Positions 24,838 through 41,264 of a DNA stretch of 49,639 nucleotides are shown here, in pieces. The notes beneath the pieces are model-generated. The model searched no databases. It was not told the origin of the DNA and saw only the letters and a list, made by a program, of their open reading frames with translations. The DNA comes from an uncultured Spirochaetaceae bacterium (lineage in GTDB: Bacteria; Spirochaetota; Spirochaetia; SZUA-6; DRHE01), in the NCBI GenBank assembly GCA_964495755.1, contig CAZBXU010000003.1:1-49639 (forward strand). Reading direction: 5' to 3'. The position numbers and the translations under genes were made by a program. Numbering within the stretch: position 1 is the stretch's first letter; the number at the start of each line of letters is the position of its first letter.

Positions 24838-25847
24838 AAGAAGAACTCCTCTTGAAGCTCACCCCGTTTCCCGGGCAGAAACCCTTTGACATCCTCATAG
24901 TAAGCCTTAACGCGGTGTCGATTTTCCTCCGGGGAAGGAACATGGAACAAGGTTTTGGCGATTGAATGGGCAATCACCTCTTCGCAAAAGCCCAGGGCCG
25001 TAGAAAATTTCTTGGCTGCTTTTTCAGGATCAGACACAACCTGCTGGGTAGCCGCACGCCACTGGACTATAAATTCCTTCAACATCTCGGCGTTCCTTTC
25101 TGCGTAGCTGCGGGTCGTGAACAGGCTTACCTGAGGAGACAGCGCTTCGCCTTGATTCGCGGCAGCCCAGGCCTGTTTGTAGTCGATGAAGCGTTGCAGA
25201 CCCCGATTGATGACCAGTTCCGAGGCCAGAGGCTCAGGAATCGGTGCGGCGTCGATCCGGCCTTTTAGAAGCAGCGCCACGGTTTGAGGTAAAGGAGAGT
25301 AGATAATAGTAAGGTCCCGATCCGGGTCGATATCCTGTTTATGCAGGAAAAAACGGGTCTGAAAATCCAGAGGGGAACCCGGGAACGGCAGAGCGATCCG
25401 CTTCCCCGCAAGATCAGCAATGCTTTCGATACGCGGACAGTCGATGGAGCCAATCAGATAGGAGATACCCCATACACCCGTGCTGATCATCAGGATGGGG
25501 CTGCCGGACAAGTAGTTCTCCCACCCCTGGCTGCTTCCGGTAAGAAGCAGATCTACCTCGCCGCGAAGCAACCGCGCCAAAGCCTGAGCATGGTTGAGGA
25601 AGATATCTGCCTGGATATCTACACCCGGAAGTGGATCCTCCTCGGCAAGGAGAAGTAGAGGCAGGCTCGAGTTGGAGGGAGGCACCAACAGGCGTACAAC
25701 AGGGGTAACCGGTTGCGCAGAGCAGGCTCCAATCCCGACAAGACCGAAGAATACAAGACCGAAGAATACAAGAGCAATAAGAAATCTCGCAGAACGGTAA
25801 TAGTGGTGATCTCTTTTGATCTGAAATAACGGGGTGACACAGATCAT
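24828..25847 (-). CDS. NMT1/TauA/SsuA-type ABC substrate-binding lipoprotein
   Basis: Signal peptide with lipobox GIGACS and an NMT1-like core (LAGKRIALPFPGSPLDF). It has an ATGA overlap with the upstream kinase gene. Confidence 0.75.
   Translation of the reverse strand: MICVTPLFQIKRDHHYYRSARFLIALVFFGLVFFGLVGIGACSAQPVTPVVRLLVPPSNSSLPLLLLAEEDPLPGVDIQADIFLNHAQALARLLRGEVDLLLTGSSQGWENYLSGSPILMISTGVWGISYLIGSIDCPRIESIADLAGKRIALPFPGSPLDFQTRFFLHKQDIDPDRDLTIIYSPLPQTVALLLKGRIDAAPIPEPLASELVINRGLQRFIDYKQAWAAANQGEALSPQVSLFTTRSYAERNAEMLKEFIVQWRAATQQVVSDPEKAAKKFSTALGFCEEVIAHSIAKTLFHVPSPEENRHRVKAYYEDVKGFLPGKRGELQEEFFFCP
25741..25770. repeat. Perfect 15-bp tandem duplication inside the binding-protein signal peptide
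   Basis: AGACCGAAGAATACA occurs twice back to back. On the minus strand it encodes the doubled LVFFG-LVFFG. Confidence 0.9.
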
Positions 25848-27319
25848 GACAGGGGGATTTCCACTTTAAAGATGCTGCCCTTGCCGGGAGCACTCTCCGC
25901 ATTTATTTGCCCCTGGTGCAGCTCGATCAGCCGCTTGACCAGACTCAGGCCCAGACCCGTCCCTGGTATATCAGCTGTGTGTTCGTTCTTGACACGGTAA
26001 AATTCGTCGAAGACTTTGTCCAACTCCGGCTGAGTCATTCCGATCCCCGTGTCCTGCACACTGACGGCAGCGTACAGGCCGTTTTGAGCCACCTGGACTG
26101 TCACCTTACCCTGCTCCGCGGTGTATTTGATCGCATTGTCGATTAAATTGGAGAAGACCAGGAGCAGGGCTTCCCTGTCAGCCAGGGCGGTTTTTTCTTT
26201 CTCGGGGAGAAGCTCATTCAGGGTAAGATCGATACCCTTGCCGGCGGCTCTCTCTCTCGCTGCTTCCACAGCCTCGCGAACGATTTCAACCATATCTACA
26301 CTGGTACGGTGCAGCTCAAAATTGCCGGTCTCAATGGCGGTGATGCTGAGAAGCTCCGATATGAGAATACGCAGCGTCCTCACCCGGAGGTGCGAACGTT
26401 CTATCATGTGTCTTTCCTCCTCCGGATCATGCCCTGCCAACCCGCTGAGCAGCAGGTTGAGCCACCCTTCAGTTGCCGCCAGCGGGCTTTTCAGCTCGTG
26501 GGCCACCATGGAGACGAACATCGATTTGGCGGTCTCCAACTTCTTCAGCTCGGTGATGTCCCGAAATACCGCCACCGCCCCTGAGGTCTCACCGCCCGGT
26601 TCAATCACCGGACTCACGTTTACCATATAGGTGTTTTTCCCGATTGCCAGCTCCCGGGAGACGATCCTGGGACCGGGGTCCCCCTCAAGGACTTCATCGA
26701 TCAGCTCATCTGTTTTCGGATACTCCAGCTCGGAGAGGGAGAAAGGCACGTTTTGCCTCGATGCCTTTGGGAAAATACGGGCGGCGGTGTTGTTACGCAG
26801 CACGACCAGCTTCTCCAGGTTGATGACCAGCAGACCATCGGTGATACATTTGAGGATCGTACTGCACTTCGATCGCTCCGAGGCGACTTCAAGCAGGCGC
26901 TTCTCCCTTTCCTCCCGCAGACGTTTGGCCTCGAGAGCCAGAGCCTGACGCTCCAGGCCGTTGCGGATGGCAAGCAGGAGCTCCTCCGGGGTGAAGGGCT
27001 TGGGGATATAGCTGTAGGCGCCCTGCTTGGTGCCCTCCACCGCCGTATCGATGGTGGCGTAGGCGGTGATGACGATCAGGAGAAGATCAGGATCCAGCGC
27101 CCTGAGCCTCTTGATCAACTCCAGGCCCCCGAGACGGGGCATCAGCAGGTCGACGAGGGCGAATGAATAGTGGGGGTCATTTTCGAAGATCTCGAGAGCC
27201 TCGATCCCATCACAGGCAGTGGTTACCTCGAATCCTTCTTCCGTAAGGATTTTACGGCAGCCTTCACGGATGCCGAACTCGTCATCCACAATCAGGGCAC
27301 GAATCCCATGGTCGTTCAT
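25844..27319 (-). CDS. Soluble hybrid sensor: receiver - PAS - HisKA - HATPase_c
   Basis: The REC domain has ALVDLLMP. A PAS-like segment follows, then the H-box MVAHELKSPLAATEG and the G-boxes DTGIGM and GTGLGLSLV. There are no TM helices. Confidence 0.85.
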   Translation of the reverse strand: MNDHGIRALIVDDEFGIREGCRKILTEEGFEVTTACDGIEALEIFENDPHYSFALVDLLMPRLGGLELIKRLRALDPDLLLIVITAYATIDTAVEGTKQGAYSYIPKPFTPEELLLAIRNGLERQALALEAKRLREEREKRLLEVASERSKCSTILKCITDGLLVINLEKLVVLRNNTAARIFPKASRQNVPFSLSELEYPKTDELIDEVLEGDPGPRIVSRELAIGKNTYMVNVSPVIEPGGETSGAVAVFRDITELKKLETAKSMFVSMVAHELKSPLAATEGWLNLLLSGLAGHDPEEERHMIERSHLRVRTLRILISELLSITAIETGNFELHRTSVDMVEIVREAVEAARERAAGKGIDLTLNELLPEKEKTALADREALLLVFSNLIDNAIKYTAEQGKVTVQVAQNGLYAAVSVQDTGIGMTQPELDKVFDEFYRVKNEHTADIPGTGLGLSLVKRLIELHQGQINAESAPGKGSIFKVEIPLS

Positions 27320-27714
27320 GCGAGGAGCTCCTCCACTTTGCTAATAAGCACCTCGGGGGAGACGGGCTTGTCGAAGAAGGCGTCGGCCCGCATCGCTTCC
27401 AGCTCCTCTTGGCTTCGCGGGTTGAAGTCGAATCCCCGCCTACTGGCCGCCGCTGTCACTATGATTACCGGTATGTCTGTGAACCTGGGGTCGGATTTGA
27501 TTTTTTTGGCCAGAGAGAACCCGGAGTCGAGACTCTTCATCATCAGATCCGTCACCACCAGCTTCGGCGCCTCGGCCTCCATGCTCTGCCAGGCTTGATC
27601 GGCGTCGCTGAAGCAGCTGACCCGGTACCCTTTCGCTTTCAATATGCCGCTGTTCATCTCCAGGAAATCAATGTCGTCGTCAACCAGCACGATCGATGGT
27701 TTTGTTCCTGTCAT
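27316..27714 (-). CDS. Stand-alone response-regulator receiver protein
   Basis: 132 aa, REC domain only (IVLVDDD..., phospho-Asp context LVVTDLMM, IPVIIVTA). Confidence 0.85.
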   Translation of the reverse strand: MTGTKPSIVLVDDDIDFLEMNSGILKAKGYRVSCFSDADQAWQSMEAEAPKLVVTDLMMKSLDSGFSLAKKIKSDPRFTDIPVIIVTAAASRRGFDFNPRSQEELEAMRADAFFDKPVSPEVLISKVEELLA

Positions 27715-27718
27715 GCCT

Positions 27719-28114
27719 CTACCCTCGCAAGATCTTGTTGATCACATCGAGCAACAGCAGCGGCTCTACCGGTTTCTCGATCAGGGCATCAACGGGTAAC
27801 CAGGTCTCGTCAGGCTCGATATGGAAAGGAATTGTGTCGCTTACCGATGTGATCATGACCAGAGGAATGGTTTTTGTGTGCTCGCAATTTCGCAGTTCCC
27901 GGGAAAGATTGAATCCGATAACCTCACTTTCCATCATCATGTCCAGGATGATCAGGTCCGGTTTCCTGCTGTTGACCTGCTCCAGACATTCCCTGCCGCT
28001 GTAGGCAGTAAGTACCCTGTAGCCGTGATCGGCGAGCAGCTTGCGGTGCATCTCCATGAAATCCGCATCGTCGTCCACCAACAGCACTGTTTTTCTTACT
28101 CTTCGCGTGCTCAT
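27719..28114 (-). CDS. Stand-alone response-regulator receiver protein
   Basis: 131 aa, REC domain only (VLLVDDD..., LIILDMMM, IPLVMITS). It is a paralogue of the next gene and has an ATGA overlap with the upstream kinase. Confidence 0.85.
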   Translation of the reverse strand: MSTRRVRKTVLLVDDDADFMEMHRKLLADHGYRVLTAYSGRECLEQVNSRKPDLIILDMMMESEVIGFNLSRELRNCEHTKTIPLVMITSVSDTIPFHIEPDETWLPVDALIEKPVEPLLLLDVINKILRG

Positions 28115-30135
28115 GGCGGCTCTCCTATTCCAACCATCTGTTTTGTCTTGGCGTCATTCAGCGGCAGCCGGATGGTGAAGGCAGTCCCTTTTCCGACGTC
28201 GCTGTCAACCGAGATCTCTCCTGAGTGCATTTTTACCACCCCATACACGATGGACAGCCCCATTCCCGTTCCCTTGCCGAGCTGCTTGGTGGTGAAGAAG
28301 GGAGTGAAGATCTCAGAAAGGACCTCCTTCGGAATCCCTTGGCCCGTGTCACGGACCAGGATTTCTAAACAGTCATCATCTTCGGGTTTGCGAACCGAGA
28401 TCACGACCTTCCCTGCTTTTTCGATGGCGTCGATCCCGTTTTGGATCAGGTTTACCAGCATCTGCCGGATCTGGTCAGCGTCGATTTTTACCTCGGGAAG
28501 GTCAGGCTGGATTTCGCTTTCTATAGTAACTTGCGAATCCTGGGCCTTCAGCCGCGTATTGGCGATGACCTCTCCTATCAGCGCAGCCAGGTTCGTTTGT
28601 TCCCTTGCCACGCGGGACTGGCGGGCAAAGTCCAGAAGGCCCCGCATGATGTTGCGGCAGCGCGTCGCCTCGCTCAGGATCATCTGCACGTCCTCCGACC
28701 CGGCATCCTCTTTCTTGCGGTGTTTCAGGAGCATGTGGGAGTACAGAAGGATCGTGCTCAGCGGATTGTTGATTTCATGGGCCACTCCGGCGGAGATCTG
28801 GCCCATGGAGGCCAGACGCTCGGTCTGAATCAGACGGCTCTGCGCCGAAGCCAGCTCCCGGTGGGACTCCTGCAGCTCCTTCAGAGTCGTTTCCAGCTCC
28901 TCCACCAGGTAGGGCAGGCACATCTCGATCTCAGCCAGGCCCTGGCACACGGCGATGGCCTTCTCGCGACAGGTGGGATATCCGCAGGAGCCGCAGTTCA
29001 GCTGATCCTCCGGCCCGAACTTGCGCATGGCCTTGAGGGCCTCGGCGATTTCCTCTTCGGAAGGCTGCGGCAGCAGCACGGTCTGGCGGGTAAACTGTCG
29101 GGAAAGGTCCAGATCGTCGAACTCCGCCAGAGCTTCTGTCAGCTCCCGCCGGACGGTGAAACGATTCTGCTCGATGATGTAATCTGTAAGCAGTTCTTTA
29201 CGGGTAAAGACACTCATTTCCACGGGTATCTTCGGCCCGTTGATGCAGCCCTCGCAGAACAGCAGGTCGAACAGCTTGGCCTTGCTCTTGCCCGCCTCCA
29301 GCTCTTTGAGCACCTCCAGCACCCTGTCCTTGCCTTCGGTGATCAGAACGTCGTTTTCCAGAATATCCGCCTGCAGCCCTGTGGTGCGCAGCAGTCCTCC
29401 GGAGATGGGGAAGGTCCTGCCCAGGTAGCAGGGAGGCCCGTCGAAGTCGCTGATCTTTTCCTGTTCCGGATCGATCCCGGCCTCAGAAACCATGGCGAGC
29501 ATTTCCTCGAAGGTGAGAACCGCATCGACGGTTCCCTGCACGAAGGGGTCCTTGATCTCGTTCTTCTTGGCGATGCAGGGTCCGATGAAGACGATCCGAA
29601 CCCCGGAGCCGTAGCGTTGGCGGATGGCTCTGCCCACGGCAATCATGGGACTGACGATGGGAGCCAGGGCATCGTGAAGGGACGGCATGTATTTCTCTAT
29701 GTAGGACACGATGGCCGGACAGGGTGTGGAGATCACGTATTTACCATTCTGGAGTGCGTCTTTGAATACTTTGGAGTATTCCCGGCTGATCAACTCGGCT
29801 CCGAAGGAGACTTCCCAGATATCCCCGAATCCCAGCTTGCGCAAGCTGGCGACGATCCGTCCGGGATGGGTGGGGTGGAAGGCAACGGGAAAGGAAGGGG
29901 CCAAACAGGCAAAGGTCCTCTCCTTGCCCTCCAGGAGGTTCCGAACCAGCATGGTGCTGTCCTCGATCCGTTTGGCCTTCTGGGCGCAGACCTTCACGCA
30001 GTTTCCGCAGCAGATGCACTGCTCCTCGATGACGGTGGCCTGTCCTCCGATGACCTTGATCGCCTTGGCCGGGCATTCCCGAACGCAGGAGTAGCAGCGT
30101 TTGCACTTCTCCGGAATCGTCTCAACGATGCCCAT
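28111..30135 (-). CDS. Sensory [FeFe]-hydrogenase-like protein fused to a histidine kinase (HydS-HK, group C-like)
   Basis: It has two 4Fe-4S motifs (CKRCYSCVRECP, CICCGNCVKVCA). The H-cluster-like motifs are degenerate: ISTPCPAIV, IGPCIAKKNE and LFCEGCINGP. CGSCGYPTC-x16-C follows, then the H-box GVAHEINNPL and HATPase_c (DTGQGIP, GTGMGLSIV). Confidence 0.8.
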   Translation of the reverse strand: MGIVETIPEKCKRCYSCVRECPAKAIKVIGGQATVIEEQCICCGNCVKVCAQKAKRIEDSTMLVRNLLEGKERTFACLAPSFPVAFHPTHPGRIVASLRKLGFGDIWEVSFGAELISREYSKVFKDALQNGKYVISTPCPAIVSYIEKYMPSLHDALAPIVSPMIAVGRAIRQRYGSGVRIVFIGPCIAKKNEIKDPFVQGTVDAVLTFEEMLAMVSEAGIDPEQEKISDFDGPPCYLGRTFPISGGLLRTTGLQADILENDVLITEGKDRVLEVLKELEAGKSKAKLFDLLFCEGCINGPKIPVEMSVFTRKELLTDYIIEQNRFTVRRELTEALAEFDDLDLSRQFTRQTVLLPQPSEEEIAEALKAMRKFGPEDQLNCGSCGYPTCREKAIAVCQGLAEIEMCLPYLVEELETTLKELQESHRELASAQSRLIQTERLASMGQISAGVAHEINNPLSTILLYSHMLLKHRKKEDAGSEDVQMILSEATRCRNIMRGLLDFARQSRVAREQTNLAALIGEVIANTRLKAQDSQVTIESEIQPDLPEVKIDADQIRQMLVNLIQNGIDAIEKAGKVVISVRKPEDDDCLEILVRDTGQGIPKEVLSEIFTPFFTTKQLGKGTGMGLSIVYGVVKMHSGEISVDSDVGKGTAFTIRLPLNDAKTKQMVGIGEPP

Positions 30136-30149
30136 CGTTATCCCCTATC

Positions 30150-31928
30150 TCACACTCGCGCTCTCGGGGTGTAGGAGGTGTGCAGCAGGTGGTGGGACTT
30201 CTCCCCGAGGGGTTTCTTCAAGTACTGCTCGTAGATCAACTTGATCTCCGGGTTGTGGTGGGAGGCACGCACCTCTTTGCCCTCATCCTCCTTGTAGATG
30301 GCGGCGATACGGGCCTTGCGTACCTCGTCGCTGGTCAGCCGGGGTTGGCCGCCGCCGCCGATACACCCGCCGGGACAGGTCATGATCTCCACGAAGTGAT
30401 ACTGAGCTTCCGGAGAACCGCTCTTGATGTGCTCGATCACCTTCCGGGCGTTGCCCAGCCCGTGGGCCACGGCCACTTTCAGGGTCACACCTTCGAGGAA
30501 AGACCACTCCGGCAATGTGTCAGTGATTGTGAGGGCTGCTTCCTTTACTCCCTCCAGTCCCATGATCGGTGTGACGTGCAGATTGGGGAAGGGCAGTGGT
30601 CGCCCGGTCACCAGCTCGTAAGCTGTGCGCAGGGCTGCCTCCATGACGCCACCCGTGTTGGCAAAGATATCCGCAGCTCCCGAGGACATGCCCAGGAGTC
30701 TATCCATCTTTTCATCGGGAAGGCCGGCAAAATCGATCCCCGCCTGTTTGATCATTCGCCCCAGCTCTCGGGTGGTGAGCACGATGTCGACGTCTCTCAC
30801 CCCGCTGCCGTTCATCTCCGGCCGCCCGGCCTCGTACTTCTTGGCCGTGCAGGGCATCACCGATACGACCACGATCTCCTCGGGACGCTTGCCTAAGCTT
30901 TCAGCGTAGTAGGTCTTGGCCACCGCGCCGAACATCTGTTGAGGGCTCTTACAGGTGGAGATGTTCGGTAGAAACTCGGGGTAGAAGTGCTCGGCATATT
31001 TGATCCAGCCCGGCGAGCAGCTGGTGAACTGGGGCAGGGCTACAGATTTTCCCTCCACCAGGGCCTGCTTCAATCGGCTGAGCAGCTCGTTGCCCTCCTC
31101 CATGATGGTCAGATCGGCGGCGAAGTTGGTGTCGAATACGCCGTCGAAGCCGAGGCGCCGGAGTGCGCTGACCATTTTTCCTGTCACCAGGGTTCCGGGG
31201 GGATAATCGAAGCACTCCCCCAGGGCGGCCCGGATGGCCGGAGCGGTCTGCACCACAACGTGTTTTGCAGGGTCGTCCAGGGCGGCCCAGACCTCATCGA
31301 TCTGGTCCCGCTCGATGATCGCTCCTACGGGGCAGACGGCGGCACACTGGCCGCACTGCACACAGACCACGTCCTCCAGGTTGCTGCAGAAGGCCGGTCC
31401 GATCACCGAGGCGAATCCCCGATTCTGGGGAAAGATTGCCGCCACGCCCTGGACCTGCCCGCAGACGGTTACGCAGCGGCGGCAGAGGATGCACTTGGCC
31501 GAATCCCTCACCAGCGCCGCAGTGCTGACATCGGTGAGCCGGACACTTTTTTCCCCGGAAAACTCGATCTCCCGAATCCCCAGTTCCTTGGCCAGGGACT
31601 GAAGCTCGCAGTCTCCGTTCCGGTCGCAGATCTGACAGTCTCCCTCGTGGTCTGAGAGGATCAACTCTACCACCGTTCGGCGGGCTTCCCGAACCCGTCG
31701 GGTGTTGGTATGGACTGCCATCCCCTCTGCTGCGGGAGTGACGCAGGAGGGGACCAGTGTCTTTGCTCCCTCCACTTCCACCAGGCAGACCCGGCAGGCG
31801 CCGATGGCCTGGACATTTTCCAGATAGCACAAGGTGGGAATGTGGATCCCGGCCTGGCGGGCCGCTTCAAGCAGGGTGGTCCCTTCGGGAACCTCGATCT
31901 TCCTATTGTCTATACTTAGTGTTGGCAT
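30150..31928 (-). CDS. hydA: [FeFe] hydrogenase catalytic subunit, M3 architecture, non-canonical L1 motif
   Basis: The N-terminus has a 2Fe-2S domain, the His-ligated cluster HEGDCQICDRNGDC and two 4Fe-4S motifs. L1 reads FTSCSPGW, L2 VMPCTAKKYE and L3 EIMTCPGGCIGGGGQP. Confidence 0.85.
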   Translation of the reverse strand: MPTLSIDNRKIEVPEGTTLLEAARQAGIHIPTLCYLENVQAIGACRVCLVEVEGAKTLVPSCVTPAAEGMAVHTNTRRVREARRTVVELILSDHEGDCQICDRNGDCELQSLAKELGIREIEFSGEKSVRLTDVSTAALVRDSAKCILCRRCVTVCGQVQGVAAIFPQNRGFASVIGPAFCSNLEDVVCVQCGQCAAVCPVGAIIERDQIDEVWAALDDPAKHVVVQTAPAIRAALGECFDYPPGTLVTGKMVSALRRLGFDGVFDTNFAADLTIMEEGNELLSRLKQALVEGKSVALPQFTSCSPGWIKYAEHFYPEFLPNISTCKSPQQMFGAVAKTYYAESLGKRPEEIVVVSVMPCTAKKYEAGRPEMNGSGVRDVDIVLTTRELGRMIKQAGIDFAGLPDEKMDRLLGMSSGAADIFANTGGVMEAALRTAYELVTGRPLPFPNLHVTPIMGLEGVKEAALTITDTLPEWSFLEGVTLKVAVAHGLGNARKVIEHIKSGSPEAQYHFVEIMTCPGGCIGGGGQPRLTSDEVRKARIAAIYKEDEGKEVRASHHNPEIKLIYEQYLKKPLGEKSHHLLHTSYTPRARV

Positions 31929-31932
31929 ACCG

Positions 31933-34900
31933 TTACTCTCCTGATTCTGGTTCTCTATAGTCGCAGCGCAAACAGCGCTTTGCTTCCGCTAAAGCCACGT
32001 TTCGGGTCCAGGTGGCCTCTACCTCGGTGAAGCTCCCCTTGCGTTTGCTAACGGGTATGAGCTTCGGGGCCGCCCGAGGTGTCTCGACGGGATCCGCCTC
32101 GGGATCGAAGAAGGTGTCTACCTCGTGGTCCTTCCGCCAGAAGGCCCGATTTTTGCCGCCGAGGAACAGATCGATGCCTACGGCTGCCTTCTCACCGGCT
32201 GCCACCGCCTCGATCACCGAGGAGGGACCGCTGACGGCATCCCCACCGGCAAAGATCCAGGATTCCGAGGTTTGTCCATTGTTCGAGTCCACTGCGATGT
32301 AGCCCATCTCGTTGAGCTTCAAGCGTACCCCGTCGAAGATTTTCGCCGGGTCGAGGGTCTGACCGATTGCCGGGATCAGCAGGTCCGCAGGCAGCGTGTA
32401 CTCGGAGTCCTTCTTAGCCACCGGCCGGCGCCTTCCGCTCCTGTCGAACTCACCGAGCTCCATGCTCTGCAGACGCACCTGCTCAAGCTTACCTCTGTTG
32501 GCGGTCAGCTCGACAGGGGCAGCGAGGAACTCGAAGCGAACTCCCTCTTTCTCAGCCTCCTCGACCTCTTCTTCATAGGCGGGCATCTCGGCCCGGGTGC
32601 GGCGGTAGACCACGGTCACAGTCTCGGCGCCGAGGCGCAGGGCGGTGCGGGCGGCGTCCACCGCGGCGTTTCCGCCTCCCACCACTACCACGTTGCCGCC
32701 GACCTTCTGCTTGCCGTTGAGGTTGTACGCCCTTAAGAATTCGATGGCTTCGGTGCATCCCGGCATGGTTTCTCCCTCCAGGCGCAGGCCCATGCCGTCG
32801 GGGGCGCCTACGGCGAGGAACAGCGCATCATATCCCTGATCCTTAAGCTTCTCGATAGTGAAGTCCCTGCCCAGACGTTTTCCGGTTTTGATCTTCACCC
32901 CGAGCTTACGAATCATGTCGACGTCCTTACCGAGAAGCTCCCGGGGCAGCCTGTAGGCGGGAATGGCTTGAGCCAGCATCCCCCCCGGCATATCTTGAGC
33001 CTCGAAGACTTCGGGCCGGTAACCCAGTCGGGCCAGGAAATAGGCGCAGGCCAGACCCGCCGGTCCCGCTCCAACAATAGCTATCTTGCGCCCGGCTGCC
33101 TGCTCGTCGCTAAGAAAATCGGGCAGCTGAAGCTCCTTCTCCTGGTCGGAGAGGAAGCGCTTCAGAGCTCGGATAGACAGAGCCTCGTCCAGCGTGGAGC
33201 GGCGACACTTGCTTTCACAGGGGTGAAAGCAGACCCTGGAGCACACAGATACGAAGGGGTTGCGCTCCCGATGCAGCTTCAGCGCCTCTTCGTAGCGCTT
33301 CTCGGCGATCAGGCTGACGTACCCGGGTACATCGACCCCGGCGGGGCAGGCGTTCTGACATGGCGCCCGGACCAGCTCCGAACAGATCCCGGCCACGCAT
33401 TTCTTGTCCCGGATATGGGCCTCGAACTCCCCGCGGAAGTGCCGGATAGCCGAGAGCACAGGATTAGGAGCGGTCTGGCCCAGTCCACAGAGCGCCGTAT
33501 CCTTGATCACCTTACCCAGGCGAATCAGCCGTTCTATATCTCCCTCCTCGCCTTTACCGGCGCAGATGCGCTCGAGGATCTCCAGCATCCGCTTGGTGCC
33601 GATCCGGCAGGGGGCGCACTTGCCGCAGGACTCGTCCTGAACGAACTCGAGGAAGAAGCGGGCCATGTCCACCATGCAGGAGTCGTCGTCCATGATGATC
33701 AACCCGCCGGAGCCCATGATGGCTCCAAGCTCGGTCACACTCTCATAGTCCACGGGCACGTTCAGATGCTCCTTGGGGATGCAGCCGCCGGAGGGCCCGC
33801 CGATCTGGGCGGCTTTGAACTTCTTGCCGTCGGGGATCCCGCCGCCGATGTCGTAAACGATCTCCCCCAGGGGTATGCCAATGGGGACCTCCACCAGGCC
33901 GGTGTTCTTCACCGCCCCGGCTAGGGCAAACACCTTGGTGCCCTTGCTCATCTCGGTTCCGAAAGAGGCGTACCAGTCCGCTCCCTTCAAAAGAATGACC
34001 GGGATGTTGGCATAGGTCTCCACATTGTTGAGCAGGCTTGGCATGTCCCAAAGCCCCTTCTGGGCGGGGAAGGGAGGCCGGGGCCGCGGCTCTCCACGGT
34101 TGCCCTCGATGGAGGTCATCAGGGCCGTTTCTTCCCCGCATACGAAGGCACCGCTTCCCATGCGGATTTCCAGGTCGAAATCGAAGCCGGTGCCCATGAT
34201 GTTCTGGCCCAAGAGCCCGTATTCCCTTGCCTGTTGGATCGCCTTTCCCAGACGGTCGACCGCCAGGGGGTACTCGGCCCGGACGTACACGTAGCCTTGG
34301 GAGGCACCGATGGCGTAACCGGCGATGGCCATGGCCTCGATCACGCCGTGCGGGTCTCCCTCCAGCACGCTGCGGTCCATGAACGCTCCCGGGTCACCCT
34401 CATCGGCGTTGCAGAGCACGTACTTCACTTCTCCGGGAGATCTGCGGCAGAATTCCCACTTCAGGCCAGTGGGAAAGCCTGCACCGCCGCGGCCGCGCAG
34501 GCCCGAACGCTTGATCTCGTCGATCACCGCTTCCGGCTTCATCTCGGTAAGAGCCTTGGCCAGGGCCCGGTATCCGTCCCGGGCGATATACTCCTCGATG
34601 CGCAGGGGGTCGATCAGGCCGCAGTTGCGCAGCACGATCTTCACCTGTTTGCGGAAGAAGGACAACTCCTGCAGCGGCGGGGTCACCTGTCCAGCGACTC
34701 CCGCTTCGGCGGCCAGCTTGGAAACCACCCTGCCTTTGAGAAGGTGCTCCTCCACGATTTCCTCGGCATTTTCAGGCTTGAGGTTCTGGTAGAGGACGCC
34801 GTCCGGGTAGATTACAGCCACCGGGCCGGCAGCGCAGGGGCCTAGACAGCCTGTCTCGATAACCCGGATCTCTCCGTCCAGGCCGAAACGGTCTATCGCC

Positions 34901-34989
34901 TCCTTGAAGGCGGCGGACAGCTCAAGGGCTCCCGAGGCCACACAGCTGGCACCGGTACATATCAAAACGTTGCTTCGTGAACGATTCAT
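31933..34989 (-). CDS. hydB: HydB (NuoF-like, FMN/NADH) fused to a GltD/NfnB-like FAD/NAD(P)H oxidoreductase module
   Basis: 1018 aa. It opens with a thioredoxin-like 2Fe-2S domain (CTGASC...GCLGPC), then the NuoF core (GGAGFPTGLKW, ESCGKCAPCR). GltD-type Fe-S (CQNACPAGVDVPGY...CSRVCFHPCESKC) and two Rossmann motifs (IAIVGAGPAGLACAY, VVVVGGGNAAVDAART) follow. Confidence 0.8.
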   Translation of the reverse strand: MNRSRSNVLICTGASCVASGALELSAAFKEAIDRFGLDGEIRVIETGCLGPCAAGPVAVIYPDGVLYQNLKPENAEEIVEEHLLKGRVVSKLAAEAGVAGQVTPPLQELSFFRKQVKIVLRNCGLIDPLRIEEYIARDGYRALAKALTEMKPEAVIDEIKRSGLRGRGGAGFPTGLKWEFCRRSPGEVKYVLCNADEGDPGAFMDRSVLEGDPHGVIEAMAIAGYAIGASQGYVYVRAEYPLAVDRLGKAIQQAREYGLLGQNIMGTGFDFDLEIRMGSGAFVCGEETALMTSIEGNRGEPRPRPPFPAQKGLWDMPSLLNNVETYANIPVILLKGADWYASFGTEMSKGTKVFALAGAVKNTGLVEVPIGIPLGEIVYDIGGGIPDGKKFKAAQIGGPSGGCIPKEHLNVPVDYESVTELGAIMGSGGLIIMDDDSCMVDMARFFLEFVQDESCGKCAPCRIGTKRMLEILERICAGKGEEGDIERLIRLGKVIKDTALCGLGQTAPNPVLSAIRHFRGEFEAHIRDKKCVAGICSELVRAPCQNACPAGVDVPGYVSLIAEKRYEEALKLHRERNPFVSVCSRVCFHPCESKCRRSTLDEALSIRALKRFLSDQEKELQLPDFLSDEQAAGRKIAIVGAGPAGLACAYFLARLGYRPEVFEAQDMPGGMLAQAIPAYRLPRELLGKDVDMIRKLGVKIKTGKRLGRDFTIEKLKDQGYDALFLAVGAPDGMGLRLEGETMPGCTEAIEFLRAYNLNGKQKVGGNVVVVGGGNAAVDAARTALRLGAETVTVVYRRTRAEMPAYEEEVEEAEKEGVRFEFLAAPVELTANRGKLEQVRLQSMELGEFDRSGRRRPVAKKDSEYTLPADLLIPAIGQTLDPAKIFDGVRLKLNEMGYIAVDSNNGQTSESWIFAGGDAVSGPSSVIEAVAAGEKAAVGIDLFLGGKNRAFWRKDHEVDTFFDPEADPVETPRAAPKLIPVSKRKGSFTEVEATWTRNVALAEAKRCLRCDYREPESGE

Positions 34990-34993
34990 TGTC

Positions 34994-35365
34994 TTATTCC
35001 TCCAAGATGTATTCCTGAACAGGCTTGCCCTTCAGGACGTGGCTGGCGACGATCTCCCGTGCCTTTTCCCGGTTCAGGCGGACGTACAGGTAGTCCAATC
35101 CGCTCTTGTCGCTGAAAGTGAGCATGGGCTCCTGGTCGCACAGCCCTAAGCAGCCGGACTGGTGCAGGGTGACGTTCTCTACTCCCGCACCGGCCAGCTG
35201 CTCGCTGAGCTCGGCCATGATGTCCCGGGCCCCCGCTGCGATACCGCAGGTGCCCATGTGTACGGTGATGCGGATCTCCTTGGGACCGCTGCGCACATCC
35301 ACCTCGCCCCGGGCTTGGTCCCGGAGTTTTTTCAGGTCCTCCGGATTCTTGATCTTGACGCTCAT
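34994..35365 (-). CDS. Thioredoxin-like [2Fe-2S] ferredoxin
   Basis: 123 aa with HMGTCGIAAG...SGCLGLCDQEP, typical of the small ferredoxin found in HydABC clusters. It has an ATGA overlap with hydC. Confidence 0.8.
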   Translation of the reverse strand: MSVKIKNPEDLKKLRDQARGEVDVRSGPKEIRITVHMGTCGIAAGARDIMAELSEQLAGAGVENVTLHQSGCLGLCDQEPMLTFSDKSGLDYLYVRLNREKAREIVASHVLKGKPVQEYILEE

Positions 35366-35922
35366 ACTGTAGCCTCCTTGACAACGCTTTCACGGTTACG
35401 ATACTCGTCGAGGATGGCGCGGATTCGTTGAGGTTTGACCCGCTGGTGTACCTCCTCGTCGATCATGATCGTGGGGGCAAGGCCGCAAGCCCCGAAGCAG
35501 CGGGCCACCTCGAGGCTGAATTGCCGGTCCTCTGTGGTACTTCCCACGTCGATCTTCAGCTCCTGCTTGAGGTTGTCCAGTACCCGCTTGCCCCCGCGGA
35601 CGTAGCAGGCGGTGCCCAGGCAGACTCGGATCAAGTGCTTGCCCCGAGGAACGGTGGAGAAGAAGGAATAGAAACCTACCACTCCGGCCACCTCGCTGTA
35701 CGATTTGCCCAAGCGCAGGGCTATACGCTTTAGAGCTCCTTCGGGTAGATAGCCGAAGATCCCCTGAGCGATCTGCAGCACGGGAATCAGTGCCCCGGGC
35801 TTTCCCTGATACTCCTCCAGGACTTCGTCCAGCCTGGAGAATAGCTCCTCATCGGAGACGGTCTCCCCGCAGCAGGTATCTATCTTTGCGGGATTAGCTG
35901 AAATTTCAGCTTGGTTATTCAT
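35362..35922 (-). CDS. hydC: HydC (NuoE-like [2Fe-2S] subunit)
   Basis: 186 aa with IRVCLGTACYVRG...VARCFGACGLAP, the NuoE/HoxE Cys pattern. Confidence 0.85.
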   Translation of the reverse strand: MNNQAEISANPAKIDTCCGETVSDEELFSRLDEVLEEYQGKPGALIPVLQIAQGIFGYLPEGALKRIALRLGKSYSEVAGVVGFYSFFSTVPRGKHLIRVCLGTACYVRGGKRVLDNLKQELKIDVGSTTEDRQFSLEVARCFGACGLAPTIMIDEEVHQRVKPQRIRAILDEYRNRESVVKEATV

Positions 35923-35925
35923 GCC

Positions 35926-36495
35926 TCACTCCTTAATCTCAAGGGCTTCAAGACCCTCTTTTATTTGCTGATTAACTTTTCTGGCCACGGCGAGCCGATT
36001 GATCGCGGTCGGAGTGGATCCTCTCTTTCCCTGGAGAACCAGCTCCCGTGAGACCTCTTTGCTCAGAATCATTTGTTCCCGCTCTCCTACCTTCAGGCGG
36101 CAGCGCAGCTCGATGTCCGGATTGGAGGCCACCACCGAAGAGAGGGTGGAAGCCAAATTGCCGAGGGGATTGCGATCCACGTGGGCCAGGCGAAGCGTTG
36201 CCCGCACGGCCAGTCCACCGAGAGGTGAGCGCTCGAGGGCGAGCTCGCCCCCGGCCTGCTCGATCCGGAAACGAAACAAGCTCAAACCCAGGCCTGTCTT
36301 CTTCCCTTTCTTGGTCGTGTAGAAGGGATCCATGGCCCGCGCCACAGGCACGCTCAAACCCGGACCATTGTCCTCCACGGCAATGCGCATCAGATCCCAT
36401 GCGGGTTCCACGGCGATCTCCACAGCCACCACTGTGGCTCCGGCGGCGATTGCGTTTTCGATTAGATCGAGGATGTGCAGGGAAAGCTCACGCAA
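35926..36495 (-). CDS. Stand-alone GHKL (histidine-kinase-like) ATPase domain protein
   Basis: The motifs are LHILDLIENAIAAGA (N-box-like), VEDNGPGL and KKTGLGLSL. I chose the TTG at 36495, with AGGAGG 7 nt upstream, over the tracked ATG at 36561, which overlaps the PHP gene. Confidence 0.7.
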   Translation of the reverse strand: MRELSLHILDLIENAIAAGATVVAVEIAVEPAWDLMRIAVEDNGPGLSVPVARAMDPFYTTKKGKKTGLGLSLFRFRIEQAGGELALERSPLGGLAVRATLRLAHVDRNPLGNLASTLSSVVASNPDIELRCRLKVGEREQMILSKEVSRELVLQGKRGSTPTAINRLAVARKVNQQIKEGLEALEIKE

Positions 36496-37258
36496 TCTGA
36501 CACCTCCTTGAGTCGATTCCCTGAATGGCCAGGACCAGCTCGTCAAAAGATGGCTCGGCAACCACGAAGACCGTACAGGAGGAGGCGATGTCCTCCAAGA
36601 AGTGACTGTCCGAGGAGCTGATCAGGGGAAGACCGTGCTGCCGGAACTCCTCCATCCGATTCCGGGCTACTCCGGCCGAAGAGATCTCCGCGGCGGAGAA
36701 CCGGGGCGTTTCAGGGAAGAACCCTAGCTGTCCCAGCACGCTGAAGGCCTGGCGGTCCACATGAGCAGCCACGGCAATTCCACCGTGCTCCCGGATTAAG
36801 CCCACCGCTTCGCTGAGGGAGTACCCGCTTGCCGCAGTGAGAAGCCGGTGCTCCGTACCGGTTTGCCTGTCCTCAGCGTCAAGGATCCACTGCCGGTAGC
36901 CGGGATCCTTCCCGACCGGACTCAAGCGCTGCTCTGCCGATTTTCGCTGCGGCAGACTATCCAGTACGCAATCACTGACAGCGAGAGCATTATTAAGTGC
37001 CGGGAACAGACCCAGGACGTGGACCTCTTCCCGGGTTGTCATTTCGATCCCCGGAATAACCTTAAGACCGCTGCCGGTTTCTCTCTCCGCCGCTTCAGCC
37101 ACGGCAGATACATTGGCCGCACTGTTGTGGTCACAGATGGCGATCATTTTCAAATCTCTTTCCCAGGCGGTGCTCACGATTTTTCGTGGCAGCATCTGCC
37201 TCGAGGCACAGGGAGACAACGCCGTATGGATATGAAGGTCCGCCAGGAGTGCAGTCAT
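36488..37258 (-). CDS. PHP (polymerase/histidinol phosphatase) domain phosphoesterase
   Basis: The N-terminus is ADLHIHTALSPCA, followed by AICDHNS and AAHVDR metal-ligand motifs. It has an ATGA overlap with the upstream gene. Confidence 0.8.
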   Translation of the reverse strand: MTALLADLHIHTALSPCASRQMLPRKIVSTAWERDLKMIAICDHNSAANVSAVAEAAERETGSGLKVIPGIEMTTREEVHVLGLFPALNNALAVSDCVLDSLPQRKSAEQRLSPVGKDPGYRQWILDAEDRQTGTEHRLLTAASGYSLSEAVGLIREHGGIAVAAHVDRQAFSVLGQLGFFPETPRFSAAEISSAGVARNRMEEFRQHGLPLISSSDSHFLEDIASSCTVFVVAEPSFDELVLAIQGIDSRRCQIA

Positions 37259-37608
37259 TCATACCGCCCCCTGATCCCCAAGGCGTAAAGCTTGCCCGCC
37301 GTGTCGAAGGTGCTCTCTTTTGTGGTGAAGAGAGGTATTTTTTCCTCAACCGCTTTGTCTCGTACAGCCTCTTCGGGAACCATACCGGAGGTAAAAATCA
37401 CCGCCGCCTGCATGGCATGCACGGCCACGGCGATAACGTTGAGGTGAACCTGGATCGTCAGCAGCACCCCCCCAGCCGGGGCGTTGGCCAGAACATCGCT
37501 TAGAAGATCCGAGGCGTGAGCCCGGGTAATCTCGGCATGTCCCTGTTCTGCCAGATCAGCGGTAGTAGTTTGCAAACCGAGCCTGGCGGCGACTTGTTCT
37601 AAATTCAT
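37255..37608 (-). CDS. DRTGG domain protein
   Basis: 117 aa from the ATG at 37608 (an ATGA overlap). The pattern (ASDLLSDVL...LLTIQVHLNVIAVA...AVIFTSG) matches small DRTGG proteins. Confidence 0.65.
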   Translation of the reverse strand: MNLEQVAARLGLQTTTADLAEQGHAEITRAHASDLLSDVLANAPAGGVLLTIQVHLNVIAVAVHAMQAAVIFTSGMVPEEAVRDKAVEEKIPLFTTKESTFDTAGKLYALGIRGRYE

Positions 37609-39194
37609 GATTCTCCTCTCCCTCGTAAGATGACGCATTCCAAACCGGGATTGCGGTCCATCACGATATCCTCAGCCAGGGACGAGCAGGTCGGGGCTCC
37701 GCAGGCACCGCAGTCCCGCCCTGGCAGGCCGGCGGTCAGTTCGTCTATGCGTGCCAGCTTTTCGATCGCTTTGCCCATGTCCTGGTCAAGTCGCATCCCC
37801 GTGCGGGCTAGATAGGGGCTTTTTGTCGGCGCGGCGCTCACCTGCCTCCGACGCCCAAGGAGTGATGCTGCCCAGCGGTTCTTGGCCATGAAGGGATTCT
37901 CCTTGAACAGAGGTGTGCCGTAGCAGCCGTATACGCAGCAGCTGAGCTCGAGAATCCGGAAATCCCCCGAGAGTCCTTTCTCCGTTTTCTCCAGGATGTC
38001 TATTACGTTTTCCATCCCCCACGCCTCGAGGACAGACGGGTCGTGATTGCCGGTTCGAGGTGGACGGGGAATCGGTTTCTGCTCACTCCTGTCGGTTTCG
38101 GTCTGAGCAGTTATGAGGGGCAGAATCTGAGCTGAGAGCCCTGCAGGGCTGGTGATCTGCAGGCGACCGGACAGGTCGGCCCGAGTGAGAAGGGCGTACT
38201 GACTGGGGCAGGCGGCGACAAAGGTCACCGGCTGCAGGCCGTAGGCTTCGACAGCCGATTCGATCGGCGTCATGAAGGGGGCGATCTGTCCGATCAGGGA
38301 GGGAAACTGACTCTCGATAAGGTTTATGACGGCTGGGCAGATGGGAGAGATTACCGGGTAGCTATCCTGCTCGGCGGCGTACCGTCGTACCGTCCGGCGC
38401 AGCTCTTCTTCCCACTCTTCGCTGAAACGGATGTCTTTGAACCCCAGGCTTCGCAGTACCGCCATTACCAGTCGGGGCGGTATCTTCAATCCAAATTGGG
38501 TGAGAAAAGCCCGGGGGATGACGAGGGTGTCTTGGCCCGCTTCAGCGACTGATTGCTGCGGCATTTTTTTTTGGTCCGGTTCCCGAATCCCGAAAACCCC
38601 CCGCCTGCAGGCTGCAATACAGGTGGTGCATCCTATACACAGGGCAGCCAAGATGCGCGGTTTCTGATTCCACACCCTGACAGCTCGAGTCGGGCAGGCT
38701 TTCAGGCAGTCGAAACAGCCGTTGCAGAGTTCCGAGCTAATGGACAGACAGTGATCGGTGGGCTCTCCCACCGTCTGCGTTTTGAGATAGATCGTCGAGC
38801 GCACCCGGGTTCCCTTCTCTGCCCGGGAGTCGACCTCGAACACGTCACTTGCTTTCTTGATGTTGGGAAGGCCCATACCCGCGCCGAAACCGAGCTGTCT
38901 CGCCTCCGCGGAGGCCGTGGAGTATCCTGGTTTCAAGGCCAGTGCGAGATCCGCAATGCCCGGACCTTCGTCGATCACTTCCATGTTGAACCGCTTGTTG
39001 TCAAACCTGACCCAGAGATTTCCTTTACAGGCGTGGATGACCACGTTCATCTCCGCTTCATAGGCGGCAATCATGATCCGCCGCATGATCTGCCCCTCGA
39101 CTCCTATACGCTTCAGTTGTTCCTTCAGCATACGGGAGGCGGAGCCGGCGGCTGTGAAATTGCCACCCGCGATCGGGAAGGAGCTGGTGATCAT
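37605..39194 (-). CDS. Anti-sigma-type kinase (GHKL) domain + 2x[4Fe-4S] + H-cluster-like domain + Cx2Cx4Cx16C Fe-S domain protein
   Basis: From the ATG at 39194 (an ATGA overlap). The N-terminus is SpoIIAB/RsbW-like (IAAYEAEMNVVIH, VIDEGPGI, GFGAGMGLPN). Two 4Fe-4S motifs follow (CNGCFDCLKACP, CIGCTTCIAAC). The hydrogenase-like motifs are ISPICPAVIN, VAACPSQ and LSCCVYGCYG. The C-terminus has CGACGAPTC-x16-C. Confidence 0.75.
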   Translation of the reverse strand: MITSSFPIAGGNFTAAGSASRMLKEQLKRIGVEGQIMRRIMIAAYEAEMNVVIHACKGNLWVRFDNKRFNMEVIDEGPGIADLALALKPGYSTASAEARQLGFGAGMGLPNIKKASDVFEVDSRAEKGTRVRSTIYLKTQTVGEPTDHCLSISSELCNGCFDCLKACPTRAVRVWNQKPRILAALCIGCTTCIAACRRGVFGIREPDQKKMPQQSVAEAGQDTLVIPRAFLTQFGLKIPPRLVMAVLRSLGFKDIRFSEEWEEELRRTVRRYAAEQDSYPVISPICPAVINLIESQFPSLIGQIAPFMTPIESAVEAYGLQPVTFVAACPSQYALLTRADLSGRLQITSPAGLSAQILPLITAQTETDRSEQKPIPRPPRTGNHDPSVLEAWGMENVIDILEKTEKGLSGDFRILELSCCVYGCYGTPLFKENPFMAKNRWAASLLGRRRQVSAAPTKSPYLARTGMRLDQDMGKAIEKLARIDELTAGLPGRDCGACGAPTCSSLAEDIVMDRNPGLECVILRGRGES

Positions 39195-39544
39195 GGCCGG
39201 TGGGGGCCTTCTCCGTAGAGCCGTCGGTGCAGGCGGCCGCAGGTCTCGAACATATCGAACGGGCAGACCAGCACTGCGGTTGAACCCCTGGCCGCCGCCT
39301 CCAGCAGGCTCGGATCGGGATCGACACCGTCCACCAGGCAGAGGGCCGGGCAATCCATCAGCTCAGCTACGCAGGCGAGCTGGGTGTTGGCCAGGCTGGT
39401 CACGAGCAGTGTTTCAGGGCCTGCCTTTTCCAGCAGTGTGCTCATCTTGTCGCCGGCAAACACGTGAGCGATCTCGCCCATCTCCTTCCTGCCCGGCTGC
39501 AGCATTCGGGCATCGATTACCTTGACCAGTTCCTCGAGTTTCAT
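39191..39544 (-). CDS. DRTGG domain protein
   Basis: 117 aa from the ATG at 39544 (MKLEELVKVID...), preceded by GAAGGGAG. The tracked 20-codon N-terminal extension would cover the sigma54 promoter. Confidence 0.65.
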   Translation of the reverse strand: MKLEELVKVIDARMLQPGRKEMGEIAHVFAGDKMSTLLEKAGPETLLVTSLANTQLACVAELMDCPALCLVDGVDPDPSLLEAAARGSTAVLVCPFDMFETCGRLHRRLYGEGPHRP

Positions 39545-41260: not shown

Positions 41261-41264
41261 GGTT

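Follow-up and report, generated by a model that had tools for sequence, protein, structure and literature searches.

ORF 30150-31928 on the minus strand of the window (the whole stretch of 49,639 nt from an uncultured Spirochaetaceae bacterium that was analysed) very likely encodes the functional group-A HydA/BfuA of a BfuABC/HydABC hydrogenase, with a cubane ligated by Ser305 and with Cys304 as proton relay. The sequence itself, the correspondence of its residues to those of CpI, T. kivui and A. woodii, the lack of any other conserved Cys, the wide distribution of Ser at this position through both of its codon families, and the operon context were directly observed. From homology to the HydABC of A. 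woodii, with its cryo-EM structure and spectroscopy, we infer that Ser305 coordinates iron and that H2 turnover is much like that of Cys-ligated relatives. The Ser variant is real, and it is neither rare nor new but already known.

Genes of the hydrogenase locus

The genes in the window are arranged in the order hydC, a small 2Fe-2S gene, hydB::gltD, hydA and hydS-HK:

35362-35922, minus strand: hydC (bfuC), NuoE-type [2Fe-2S] subunit, 186 aa (PF01257, E 2e-48)
34994-35365, minus strand: small thioredoxin-like [2Fe-2S] protein, 123 aa (PF01257, E 1e-06), between hydC and hydB
31933-34989, minus strand: hydB (bfuB), 1018 aa, NuoF-type FMN/NAD(H) subunit with N-terminal [2Fe-2S] domain
30150-31928, minus strand: hydA (bfuA), 592 aa, ATG at 31928, M3-type group-A [FeFe]-hydrogenase catalytic subunit
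28111-30135, minus strand: H-domain protein of sensory type (group C-like) with fused HisKA and HATPase_c domains, directly downstream of hydA

HydA is composed of a [2Fe-2S] Fer2_4 domain, a NuoG-type [4Fe-4S] domain, a 2x[4Fe-4S] ferredoxin domain, the H-domain and a small-subunit-like C-terminus (Pfam matches PF13510, PF10588, PF12838, PF02906 and PF02256). The H-cluster domain was recognised by PF02906 (E 3e-96, residues 222-526) together with PF02256 (E 2e-23). TIGR02512 scored 518 bits (cut-off 406). The NCBIfam model for NADH-dependent [FeFe] hydrogenase group A6, NF040763, scored 890.7 bits (cut-off 765), and the match extends over positions 2-571 of the 571 in the profile. The top PDB match was 7q4v_A (Acetobacterium woodii HydA1; E 4e-190, 52.6% identity), and proteins in public databases reach 96% identity to the window HydA. 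The AF2 model, which contains no cofactors, had a pLDDT of 91.7 and TM values of 0.92-0.96 versus 8a6t_A and 7q4w_A. As is typical for BfuABC/HydABC (group A3), a NuoF-like hydB and a NuoE-like hydC adjoin hydA; HydC also matches NuoE/HoxE NCBIfam models. Among the ORFs scanned within the window we found no hydE/F/G maturase genes.

Two further ORFs of the window contain H-domains. ORF 28111-30135 has the L1 motif STPCPAI, with no relay Cys, together with L2 GPCIAKKNE and L3 FCEGCINGP. ORF 37605-39353, identified by Pfam, has a degenerate H-domain with L1 SPICPAV, again with no relay Cys, and the L2 Lys is absent. The initial annotation had described HydA as the only catalytic-looking enzyme of its kind in this DNA, and this holds, since both other ORFs are devoid of the relay Cys.

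Ser305 occupies the position of a cubane ligand

The motifs surrounding the H-cluster are located as follows:

31005-31025, minus strand: L1/P1 motif T302-S-C304-S305-P-G-W308, from sequence and alignment
31016-31014, minus strand: Ser305 codon TCG, from reverse-complement reading
30831-30860, minus strand: L2/P2 motif VMPCTAKKYE (357-366) with M358, cubane ligand C360 and K363
30342-30389, minus strand: L3/P3 motif EIMTCPGGCIGGGGQP (514-529) with M516, cubane ligand C518 and bridging C522

The reverse complement of 30950-31090 contains CAG TTC ACC AGC TGC TCG CCG GGC TGG (QFTSCSPGW), with the Cys304 codon TGC at 31019-31017. This re-reading agreed exactly with the codons for F-T-S-C-S-P-G noted before, including TCG for Ser305 in frame with the ATG at 31928; the range of 31008-31028 given earlier corresponds to F301-G307. 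L2 and L3 had been called canonical, and VMPCTAKKYE and EIMTCPGGCIGGGGQP indeed fit the general patterns MPCxxKxxE and ExMxCxxGCxxGGGQP. L1 deviates from the canonical TSCCPxW, as TSCSPGW keeps the relay Cys304 and has Ser305 instead of the ligand Cys, and it conforms to the relaxed P1 pattern xTSCxPxWx defined by Zheng and Huang (2024, PMC11406978).

A gapless alignment with CpI set Cys304 on C299 and Ser305 on C300, and in the column of Ser305 A. woodii HydA1 has its Ser301 and T. kivui HydA its Cys299. The view that Ser sits at the cubane-ligand position is thus borne out. All other CpI residues of the H-cluster and the proton pathway are kept (E279, E282, R286, C299, S319, M353, C355, K358, M497, C499, C503), and the proton-pathway counterparts in the window HydA are E278, E281, R285, S324 and C304. 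CpI (Clostridium pasteurianum; 4XDC, 3C8Y) and T. kivui HydA (8A6T) have the same fold as the window HydA (TM 0.90-0.94 and 0.93-0.96, respectively) and share its H-cluster environment and proton pathway, but both carry the canonical TSCCP with Cys as fourth ligand (CpI C300, T. kivui C299) where the window HydA has Ser305. Closer is A. woodii HydA1 (7Q4V, 7Q4W, 8A5E; TM 0.92-0.94 to the window HydA model), which shares the M3-type domain order, TSCSPGW, the relay Cys, canonical L2 and L3 motifs and partners of NuoF and NuoE type. The hosts differ, being Spirochaetaceae-like for the window and an acetogenic Firmicute for A. woodii.

Probable coordination of the cubane by Ser305

We propose that the H-cluster cubane would be held by Cys360, Cys518, the bridging Cys522 and the side-chain oxygen of Ser305, which would replace the usual fourth cysteine, while Cys304 would keep its role as the final proton relay before the bridgehead amine. 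The initial annotation had considered that a different Cys might provide the fourth ligand, and the check for such a residue was negative: the only invariant Cys among 201 Ser-variant H-domains are 304, 360, 518 and 522. Since no other Cys is invariant, there is no spare ligand. Cys326 (CpI A321 column) had looked like a compensating ligand, since this column is Cys in the window HydA and A. woodii and Ala in CpI and T. kivui. It was rejected as a substitute because only 90% of these 201 domains have Cys there and because, among close homologues, the column is Ala in 13 TSCSP proteins and Cys in 12 TSCCP proteins.

For A. woodii, Ser301 was described as a ligand of the cubane (A1-cluster) in a bifurcating enzyme that is active and whose H-cluster IR signature is apparently unaffected, and Cys299 was named as the A1-cluster ligand of T. 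kivui HydA (Katsyv et al. 2023, PMC10021017). The map of reduced A. woodii HydABC has a resolution of 3.4 Å, and the metal-ligand bond was modelled rather than resolved. In the same study A. woodii HydABC bifurcated at 4.1 U/mg, about 5-fold below the T. kivui enzyme, a difference that could stem from organism and temperature or could be a real effect of Ser. Altered catalysis or bias had been predicted for the window HydA whichever residue ligates. This prediction is so far unsupported: the one characterised Ser enzyme, that of A. woodii, resembles the Cys enzyme in IR signatures and activities.

We consider it improbable that Ser305 only lines the pocket and that three Cys hold the cubane, whose fourth iron would bind water, hydroxide or no ligand at all. 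Radical-SAM enzymes are known to have clusters in which three irons are ligated by Cys and one iron site is free, and a map at 3.4 Å cannot separate a Ser-O-Fe bond from a nearby non-bonded Ser. However, a position that merely lines the pocket would be expected to tolerate Ala, Gly or Thr too, and only Ser or Cys was found in the ligand column of the proteins sampled, with Ser specified by both codon families (71 TCN and 13 AGY codons in 84 Ser-type HydA ORFs). Katsyv et al. also modelled Ser301 as a ligand, and the IR signature of that H-cluster is normal.

The chances are smaller still that Cys304 has moved to the cubane and the proton-relay Cys is absent, which would make the enzyme slow, biased or sensory. 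On sequence alone such a shift is formally possible, and the sensory-type paralogues in the window show that a relay Cys can be missing while the ligand Cys is kept. It is at odds with the gapless alignment of Cys304 and Ser305 to C299 and C300 of CpI, and with the conservation of E278, E281, R285 and S324, which would be pointless in a protein lacking the relay Cys. In the AF2 model the loop is not displaced with respect to Cys enzymes (TM 0.91-0.96). The enzyme of A. woodii, which has the identical motif, shows catalytic activity and enters the HoxH and Hhyd states. Between the two alternatives offered by the initial annotation, ligation of the cubane by Ser is favoured by a solved homologue. 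Loss of the relay is unlikely, given a proton pathway that is otherwise intact and an A. woodii enzyme that has a typical H-cluster and is active.

Distribution of Ser at the ligand position

Ser was present at the ligand position in 106 of the 120 closest database homologues, in 84 of 86 HydA ORFs (80 genomes from more than 10 phyla) and in 25 of 118 diverse group-A representatives (50% identity level). Across the related loci it is encoded by TCG, TCA, TCT, TCC, AGC and AGT. TSCSPGW had been presented as if it were a rarity; the first two of these counts show that Ser is the majority state in the family. This is in agreement with Zheng and Huang (2024, PMC11406978), who describe Ser as common at this position of P1 for four of the five BfuA sub-types. 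In the literature searched, the motif 'TSCSP' or 'SCSPGW' appeared only in a 2013 Melainabacteria paper, and a serine ligand of the H-cluster only in the work of Katsyv et al.

That the Ser codon is an error of sequencing or assembly, or an inactivating mutation that arose recently in this one genome, is refuted by the first two of these counts, by the intact ORF with its NCBIfam score above the cut-off, and by ten MAG assemblies of Spirochaetaceae/Spirochaetales, independent of one another and with proteins 80-95% identical. All ten have Ser, as TCG or TCT, and their neighbouring codons differ synonymously. The earlier argument against an error, that TGC to TCG requires two base changes, is correct as a count but weak, since TGC to TCC or AGC takes one step; it is the conservation of Ser across independent assemblies that excludes an error.

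Ser being the usual state in the family, and being seen in a solved and active enzyme, the finding is an ordinary one. As a discovery, a Ser-ligated cubane in the window HydA would matter little and would add one more ordinary member, because A. woodii HydABC documents the Ser ligand structurally and spectroscopically and because Ser is common in most BfuA sub-types. The lesson concerns annotation: TSCSPGW should be regarded as neither defective nor odd when [FeFe]-hydrogenases are scored for catalytic competence, and a strict TSCCPxW pattern is too narrow for such scoring.

Recurrent switching between Ser and Cys

Switches between Ser and Cys were counted on NJ distance trees with Fitch and no bootstrap, and the numbers are approximate: about 14 switches among 117 diverse H-domains, and about 7 S-to-C reversions in one clade whose members share at least 77% identity. 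Tips with Ser and tips with Cys are intermingled on these rough trees, and Ser was rejected as the signature of a single clade. The ligand residue is coupled to the one at position +2 (S-P-G versus C-P-A/G/S), and for S-P-G this coupling is tight (130 of 133). In these sequence comparisons the ligand site behaves as a natural polymorphism whose two states, Ser and Cys, are interchangeable and switch recurrently.

It is conceivable, if rather doubtful, that the alternation of Ser and Cys together with the coupled Gly/Ala switch represents an adaptive tuning knob and not a neutral polymorphism. [FeFe]-hydrogenase lineages linked to NuoEF would then flip between Ser and Cys repeatedly and thereby adjust the potential of [4Fe-4S]H, which may alter the catalytic bias, the coupling to the bifurcating chain, or loop flexibility and the behaviour towards O2. 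The Ser state in the operon type of the window might be matched to its unusual dual-flavin (FMN and NADP(H)-FAD) HydB. The recurrence and the S-P-G coupling fit selection for tuning and near-neutral exchange alike. Recurrent switching and the coupled Gly/Ala change do define a pair of mutations that may bear on cubane potential and catalytic bias; in the literature searched, we found no published Ser/Cys swap within one scaffold.

A GltD-like module fused to HydB

The B3/B4 [4Fe-4S] domain of HydB is regarded as needed for ferredoxin coupling. In the window HydB (Pfam matches PF01257, PF01512, PF10531, PF10589, PF14691 and PF07992), the match to A. woodii HydB (7q4v_B, E 3e-238) spans residues 4-541 and ends at about 541; the B3/B4 ferredoxin-type domain is lacking, and Fer4_20 (DPD_II) and Pyr_redox_2 follow instead. 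A GltD/NfnB-like module consisting of DPD_II (2x[4Fe-4S]) and an FAD/NADP(H) part stands in the place of the usual C-terminal 2x[4Fe-4S] ferredoxin domain. Residues 541-1013 align with the GltD-like portion of 8oh5_C, 9bov_A and 9n5u_A (E 1e-109 to 1e-120), and a GxGxxG motif lies at residue 640 and a GxGxxA motif at residue 771. A. woodii HydB, in contrast, has the standard length of about 600 aa and the C-terminal 2x[4Fe-4S] ferredoxin domain.

The fusion has already been described. Sub-type I BfuB, in which DPD_II and a C-terminal FAD/NAD(P) domain take the place of the B3/B4 domain (Zheng and Huang 2024, PMC11406978), is in its domain arrangement the equivalent of the window HydB. The BfuABC sub-type I of Hydrogenedentota resembles the window in its BfuA, which is of group A3 and has Ser as residue 5 of P1, in the DPD_II and FAD/NAD(P) domains of BfuB, and in the group C sensory hydrogenase genes alongside; that work is purely genomic and covers one phylum. 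Two of our related loci (L016 and L019; 76-78% identity) belong to Hydrogenedentota. A homologous GltD/NfnB-like module is found in the Stn/NfnABC (Nfn-Bfu) transhydrogenases (8OH5, 9BOV, 9N5U; PMC7483475, PMC10482914, PMC9304861), where, as in the window, a module with FAD, NADP(H) and 2x[4Fe-4S] is joined to a bifurcating-type core of NuoE/NuoF. In Stn/NfnABC it stands in the A subunit in place of the H-domain, whereas the module of the window forms part of the B subunit and is accompanied by a complete HydA.

The fused NuoF::GltD subunit is widespread, less ordinary than Ser305 and the more promising experimental target of the locus. A link between Ser and the GltD-fused HydB was considered and rejected, as Ser also occurs beside plain HydB (loci L071, L075, L079 and L080, and A. 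woodii) and Cys beside GltD-fused HydB (loci L015 and L035). The gene for the small thioredoxin-like [2Fe-2S] protein between hydC and hydB recurs in many related loci.

Ser305 Occupies the Cubane-Ligand Position of HydA

The reverse complement around 31008-31028 reads CAG TTC ACC AGC TGC TCG CCG GGC TGG, which translates into Q-F-T-S-C-S-P-G-W. On re-reading the window, the L1 codons, the TCG codon of Ser305, the ATG at 31928 and the canonical L2 and L3 motifs of the initial annotation were all found to be correct.

30150-31928, minus strand: hydA ORF, 592 aa, ATG start at 31928
31019-31017, minus strand: Cys304 codon TGC
31016-31014, minus strand: Ser305 codon TCG
31008-31010, minus strand: residue 307, the Gly after the L1 Pro
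30951-30953, minus strand: residue 326 (Cys)
30831-30860, minus strand: L2, VMPCTAKKYE, canonical
30342-30389, minus strand: L3, EIMTCPGGCIGGGGQP, canonical

The Pfam domain order of HydA ([2Fe-2S] Fer2_4, NuoG-type [4Fe-4S], two-cluster ferredoxin domain, H-cluster domain with E 3e-96, small-subunit-like tail) is the M3 architecture, as in the Clostridium pasteurianum hydrogenase CpI and in HydA of HydABC complexes. Against NCBIfam NF040763 ('NADH-dependent [FeFe] hydrogenase, group A6') the protein scored 890.7 bits (cut-off 765). An alignment to CpI, which recovered the known CpI numbering at every marker residue, paired C300 with Ser305 and so placed the serine in the cubane-ligand column, as had been proposed initially. 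The only other marker residue that differs is S232 (Ala231), and this column is likewise Ala in Acetobacterium woodii and T. kivui HydA; A230, P231, E279, E282, R286, C299, S319, S323, P324, Q325, M353, C355, K358, F417, M497, C499 and C503 are all kept. Judged from this alignment, the proton-relay Cys and the remaining proton pathway are intact. The AlphaFold2 model of HydA (mean pLDDT 91.7; 96 over residues 301-310) was superposed on T. kivui HydA (TM 0.93/0.96, rmsd 1.8 Å), A. woodii HydA1 (TM 0.92/0.94) and CpI (TM about 0.91/0.93).

The top PDB sequence match of HydA was 7q4v_A, HydA1 of the electron-bifurcating HydABC complex of A. woodii (E 4e-190). At the position aligned with L1 this protein reads ...LPMITSCSPGWIKF..., and Ser301 (counted along the 7q4v_A chain) aligns with Ser305, whereas T. 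kivui HydA has the second Cys of L1 (Cys299). For A. woodii HydABC, Ser301 was reported as ligand of the cubane, apparently without effect on the IR signature of the H-cluster; A. woodii HydABC bifurcated at 4.1 U/mg and its counterpart from the thermophile T. kivui at 20.5 U/mg, and the reduced-state map of the A. woodii complex has a resolution of 3.4 Å (Katsyv et al., PMC10021017). TSCSPGW versus TSCCPAW was recorded in Melainabacteria hydrogenases (Di Rienzi et al. 2013, PMC3787301), and a second genomic study described Ser as common in four of five BfuA sub-types and stated its functional effect as unvalidated (Zheng and Huang 2024, PMC11406978). Structural, spectroscopic and comparative genomic studies have already described serine at the ligand position.

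It is very probable that HydA is a working enzyme, in which three Cys and Ser305 would bind the cubane and Cys304 would serve as proton relay. By analogy to A. woodii, Ser305 would bond to iron through oxygen and HydA would show normal activity, with catalysis broadly like that of its Cys-ligated relatives. The altered catalysis or bias that had been predicted is not supported by this one characterised case, but the literature searched yielded no Ser/Cys exchange within one and the same scaffold, so Ser may still have a quantitative effect on catalysis.

Other Cysteines as Putative Fourth Ligand

The initial annotation had allowed for another Cys as fourth ligand. A spare conserved Cys was sought in 201 Ser-variant H-domains and none was found, the only invariant Cys columns being 304, 360, 518 and 522. 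This leaves Ser305 as the fourth ligand, with Cys304 as a much less plausible alternative. Ligation by Cys304 is difficult to reconcile with the conserved proton pathway, with an A. woodii enzyme that is active and forms normal HoxH/Hhyd states, and with the L1 loop, which is unshifted in the AlphaFold2 model; of the two options considered initially, these data favour ligation by serine.

Residue 326 aligns with CpI Ala321 and lies two residues past the proton-pathway Ser. Cys326 was a candidate by its pattern (Cys in the window HydA and A. woodii, Ala in CpI and T. kivui), and was rejected as substitute ligand, as Ala is found there in 13 close TSCSP proteins and Cys in 12 TSCCP proteins. About 90% of the Ser-variant HydAs have Cys at 326, and so do close TSCCP relatives. 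Because the column is not invariant, Cys326 is not an obligatory ligand.

The Serine Is Widespread and Maintained

L1 is TSCSPGW in 106 of the 120 database homologues closest to HydA (77-96% identity), TSCCPAW in 11 and TSCCPGW in one. A survey scanning one genome per species yielded 80 related loci, with Ser in 84 and Cys in two of their 86 HydA ORFs. The closest loci are from Spirochaetaceae MAGs (91-95% identity). The search for natural TSCSP variants suggested initially thus found Ser across many phyla, the other loci including Planctomycetota, Hydrogenedentota, Myxococcales, Actinomycetota, Lentisphaerota/Victivallales, Verrucomicrobiota, Omnitrophota, Atribacterota, Clostridia and Bacteroidales. 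For the best 150 representatives of 50%-identity clusters, 118 had a recognisable L1, with [T/S]SCSP in 25 and the CCP form in 93; within the nearest group-A diversity, roughly one in five therefore carries Ser. The window hydA belongs to a very large family and is unremarkable within it. Of the initial reading, the place of the serine in the ligand column is confirmed and its ligation of the cubane is the supported option; the implied rarity and the predicted functional defect are not supported. The top match in the representative library, P0121 (outside the window), is a protein of 4122 aa in which seven stretches resemble HydA; it may be a giant protein with multiple H-domains, or else a product of faulty assembly or gene calling.

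In 10 independent assemblies of related spirochaetes the Ser codon is TCG or TCT, and the adjacent codons differ synonymously. Over the 80 loci we counted TCG (51), TCA (10), TCT (7), TCC (3), AGC (7) and AGT (6); the AGY codons sit in more distant loci (54-61% identity), of which the labelled ones are Clostridia/Bacillota. Interchange of TCN and AGY needs two changes via a non-Ser intermediate, while a single change leads from either family to Cys TGY. The use of both codon families hence means that Ser was retained for a long time or that Cys changed to Ser independently. Both are incompatible with a sequencing or assembly artefact, which is ruled out. The earlier argument that TGC to TCG needs two base changes is true as a count but weak, since one change is enough to turn TGC into TCC.

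By Fitch parsimony, a rough NJ tree built from 117 diverse H-domains required about 14 Cys/Ser switches, a number that is only indicative because the tree has no support values. In the close clade (distance tree with L1 masked and more distant proteins carrying Ser as outgroup) Ser was reconstructed as ancestral and the 12 Cys tips fell into about seven separate groups nested among Ser sequences, again indicative values from a tree without support values. Pro-Gly follows Ser in 130 of 133 proteins; after Cys the same position is Ala (62), Gly (36) or Ser (7), and the association of ligand and +2 residue gave a Fisher p = 8e-6 (diverse set, not phylogenetically corrected). Gly is also replaced by Ala in 11 of the 12 Ser-to-Cys reversions of the close clade (counts not phylogenetically corrected). 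A crystal structure of CpI G302S exists (7qhf), so the +2 position has drawn attention. The shorter Fe-O bond may need the backbone freedom of Gly at this position. What HydA continues to offer is a well-defined Ser/Cys (plus Gly/Ala) swap, together with an uncharacterised NuoF::GltD partner subunit.

HydB Is a NuoF::GltD Fusion

The gene hydA is the last structural gene of a series:

35362-35922, minus strand: hydC, NuoE-type
34994-35365, minus strand: small [2Fe-2S] gene
31933-34989, minus strand: hydB, 1018 aa, fusion of NuoF-type FMN/NAD(H), GltD/NfnB-like DPD_II (2x[4Fe-4S]) and FAD/NADP(H) parts

The window HydB matches A. woodii HydB over residues 4-541 (E 3e-238) and, over residues 541-1013, the GltD/NfnB-like module found in the A subunits of the Stn and NfnABC transhydrogenases (8oh5_C, 9bov_A, 9n5u_A). 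By motif reading this module has GxGxxG (FAD), GxGxxA (NADP(H)-type) and eight Cys for two [4Fe-4S] clusters; it stands in place of the usual C-terminal ferredoxin-type B3/B4 domain. HydB corresponds to the 'sub-type I BfuB', for which a second possible bifurcation centre was proposed from genomes (Zheng and Huang, PMC11406978); we found no biochemical characterisation of such a fusion in the literature. The fusion is conserved beside hydA in the majority of the 80 loci, which span many phyla. HydDB assigns hydrogenases with a GltD partner lacking NuoF to A2 and those with a NuoF partner to A3, and the architecture of HydB straddles both. Three loci from Spirochaetia MAGs (L041, L049, L054) carry two complete hydC-hydB::gltD-hydA clusters, tail to tail on opposite strands, and therefore indicate whole-operon duplication in some spirochaetes.

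Neighbouring Genes

28111-30135, minus strand: sensory-type (group C-like) H-domain with C-terminal HisKA/HATPase histidine kinase, directly downstream of hydA
27719-28114 and 27316-27714, minus strand: single-domain response regulators
25844-27319, minus strand: hybrid response-regulator/histidine kinase
35926-36561, minus strand: 211-aa HATPase_c protein, upstream of hydC
36488-37258, minus strand: PHP-domain protein, upstream of hydC
37605-39353, minus strand: second, more degenerate H-domain protein, upstream of hydC
39860-41338, minus strand: sigma-54-dependent response regulator, upstream of hydC

No hydE, hydF or hydG was seen among the window ORFs scanned; the remainder of the window encodes transporters, regulators and a cluster for a 2-oxoacid dehydrogenase. 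The L1 of the sensory protein is STPCPAI, with Pro in place of the relay Cys, and the L2 and L3 Cys are retained. Together with the two response regulators and the hybrid response-regulator/histidine kinase it likely forms an H2-responsive signalling cascade, and a sensory H-domain/histidine kinase gene also follows hydA in many related loci. The protein at 37605-39353 combines HATPase_c_2 (serine-kinase-like), 2x[4Fe-4S], partial Fe_hyd_lg_C and PF04060 FeS domains; its L1 is SPICPAV, its L2 has no Lys, and the TTG start listed for it is probably too far upstream.
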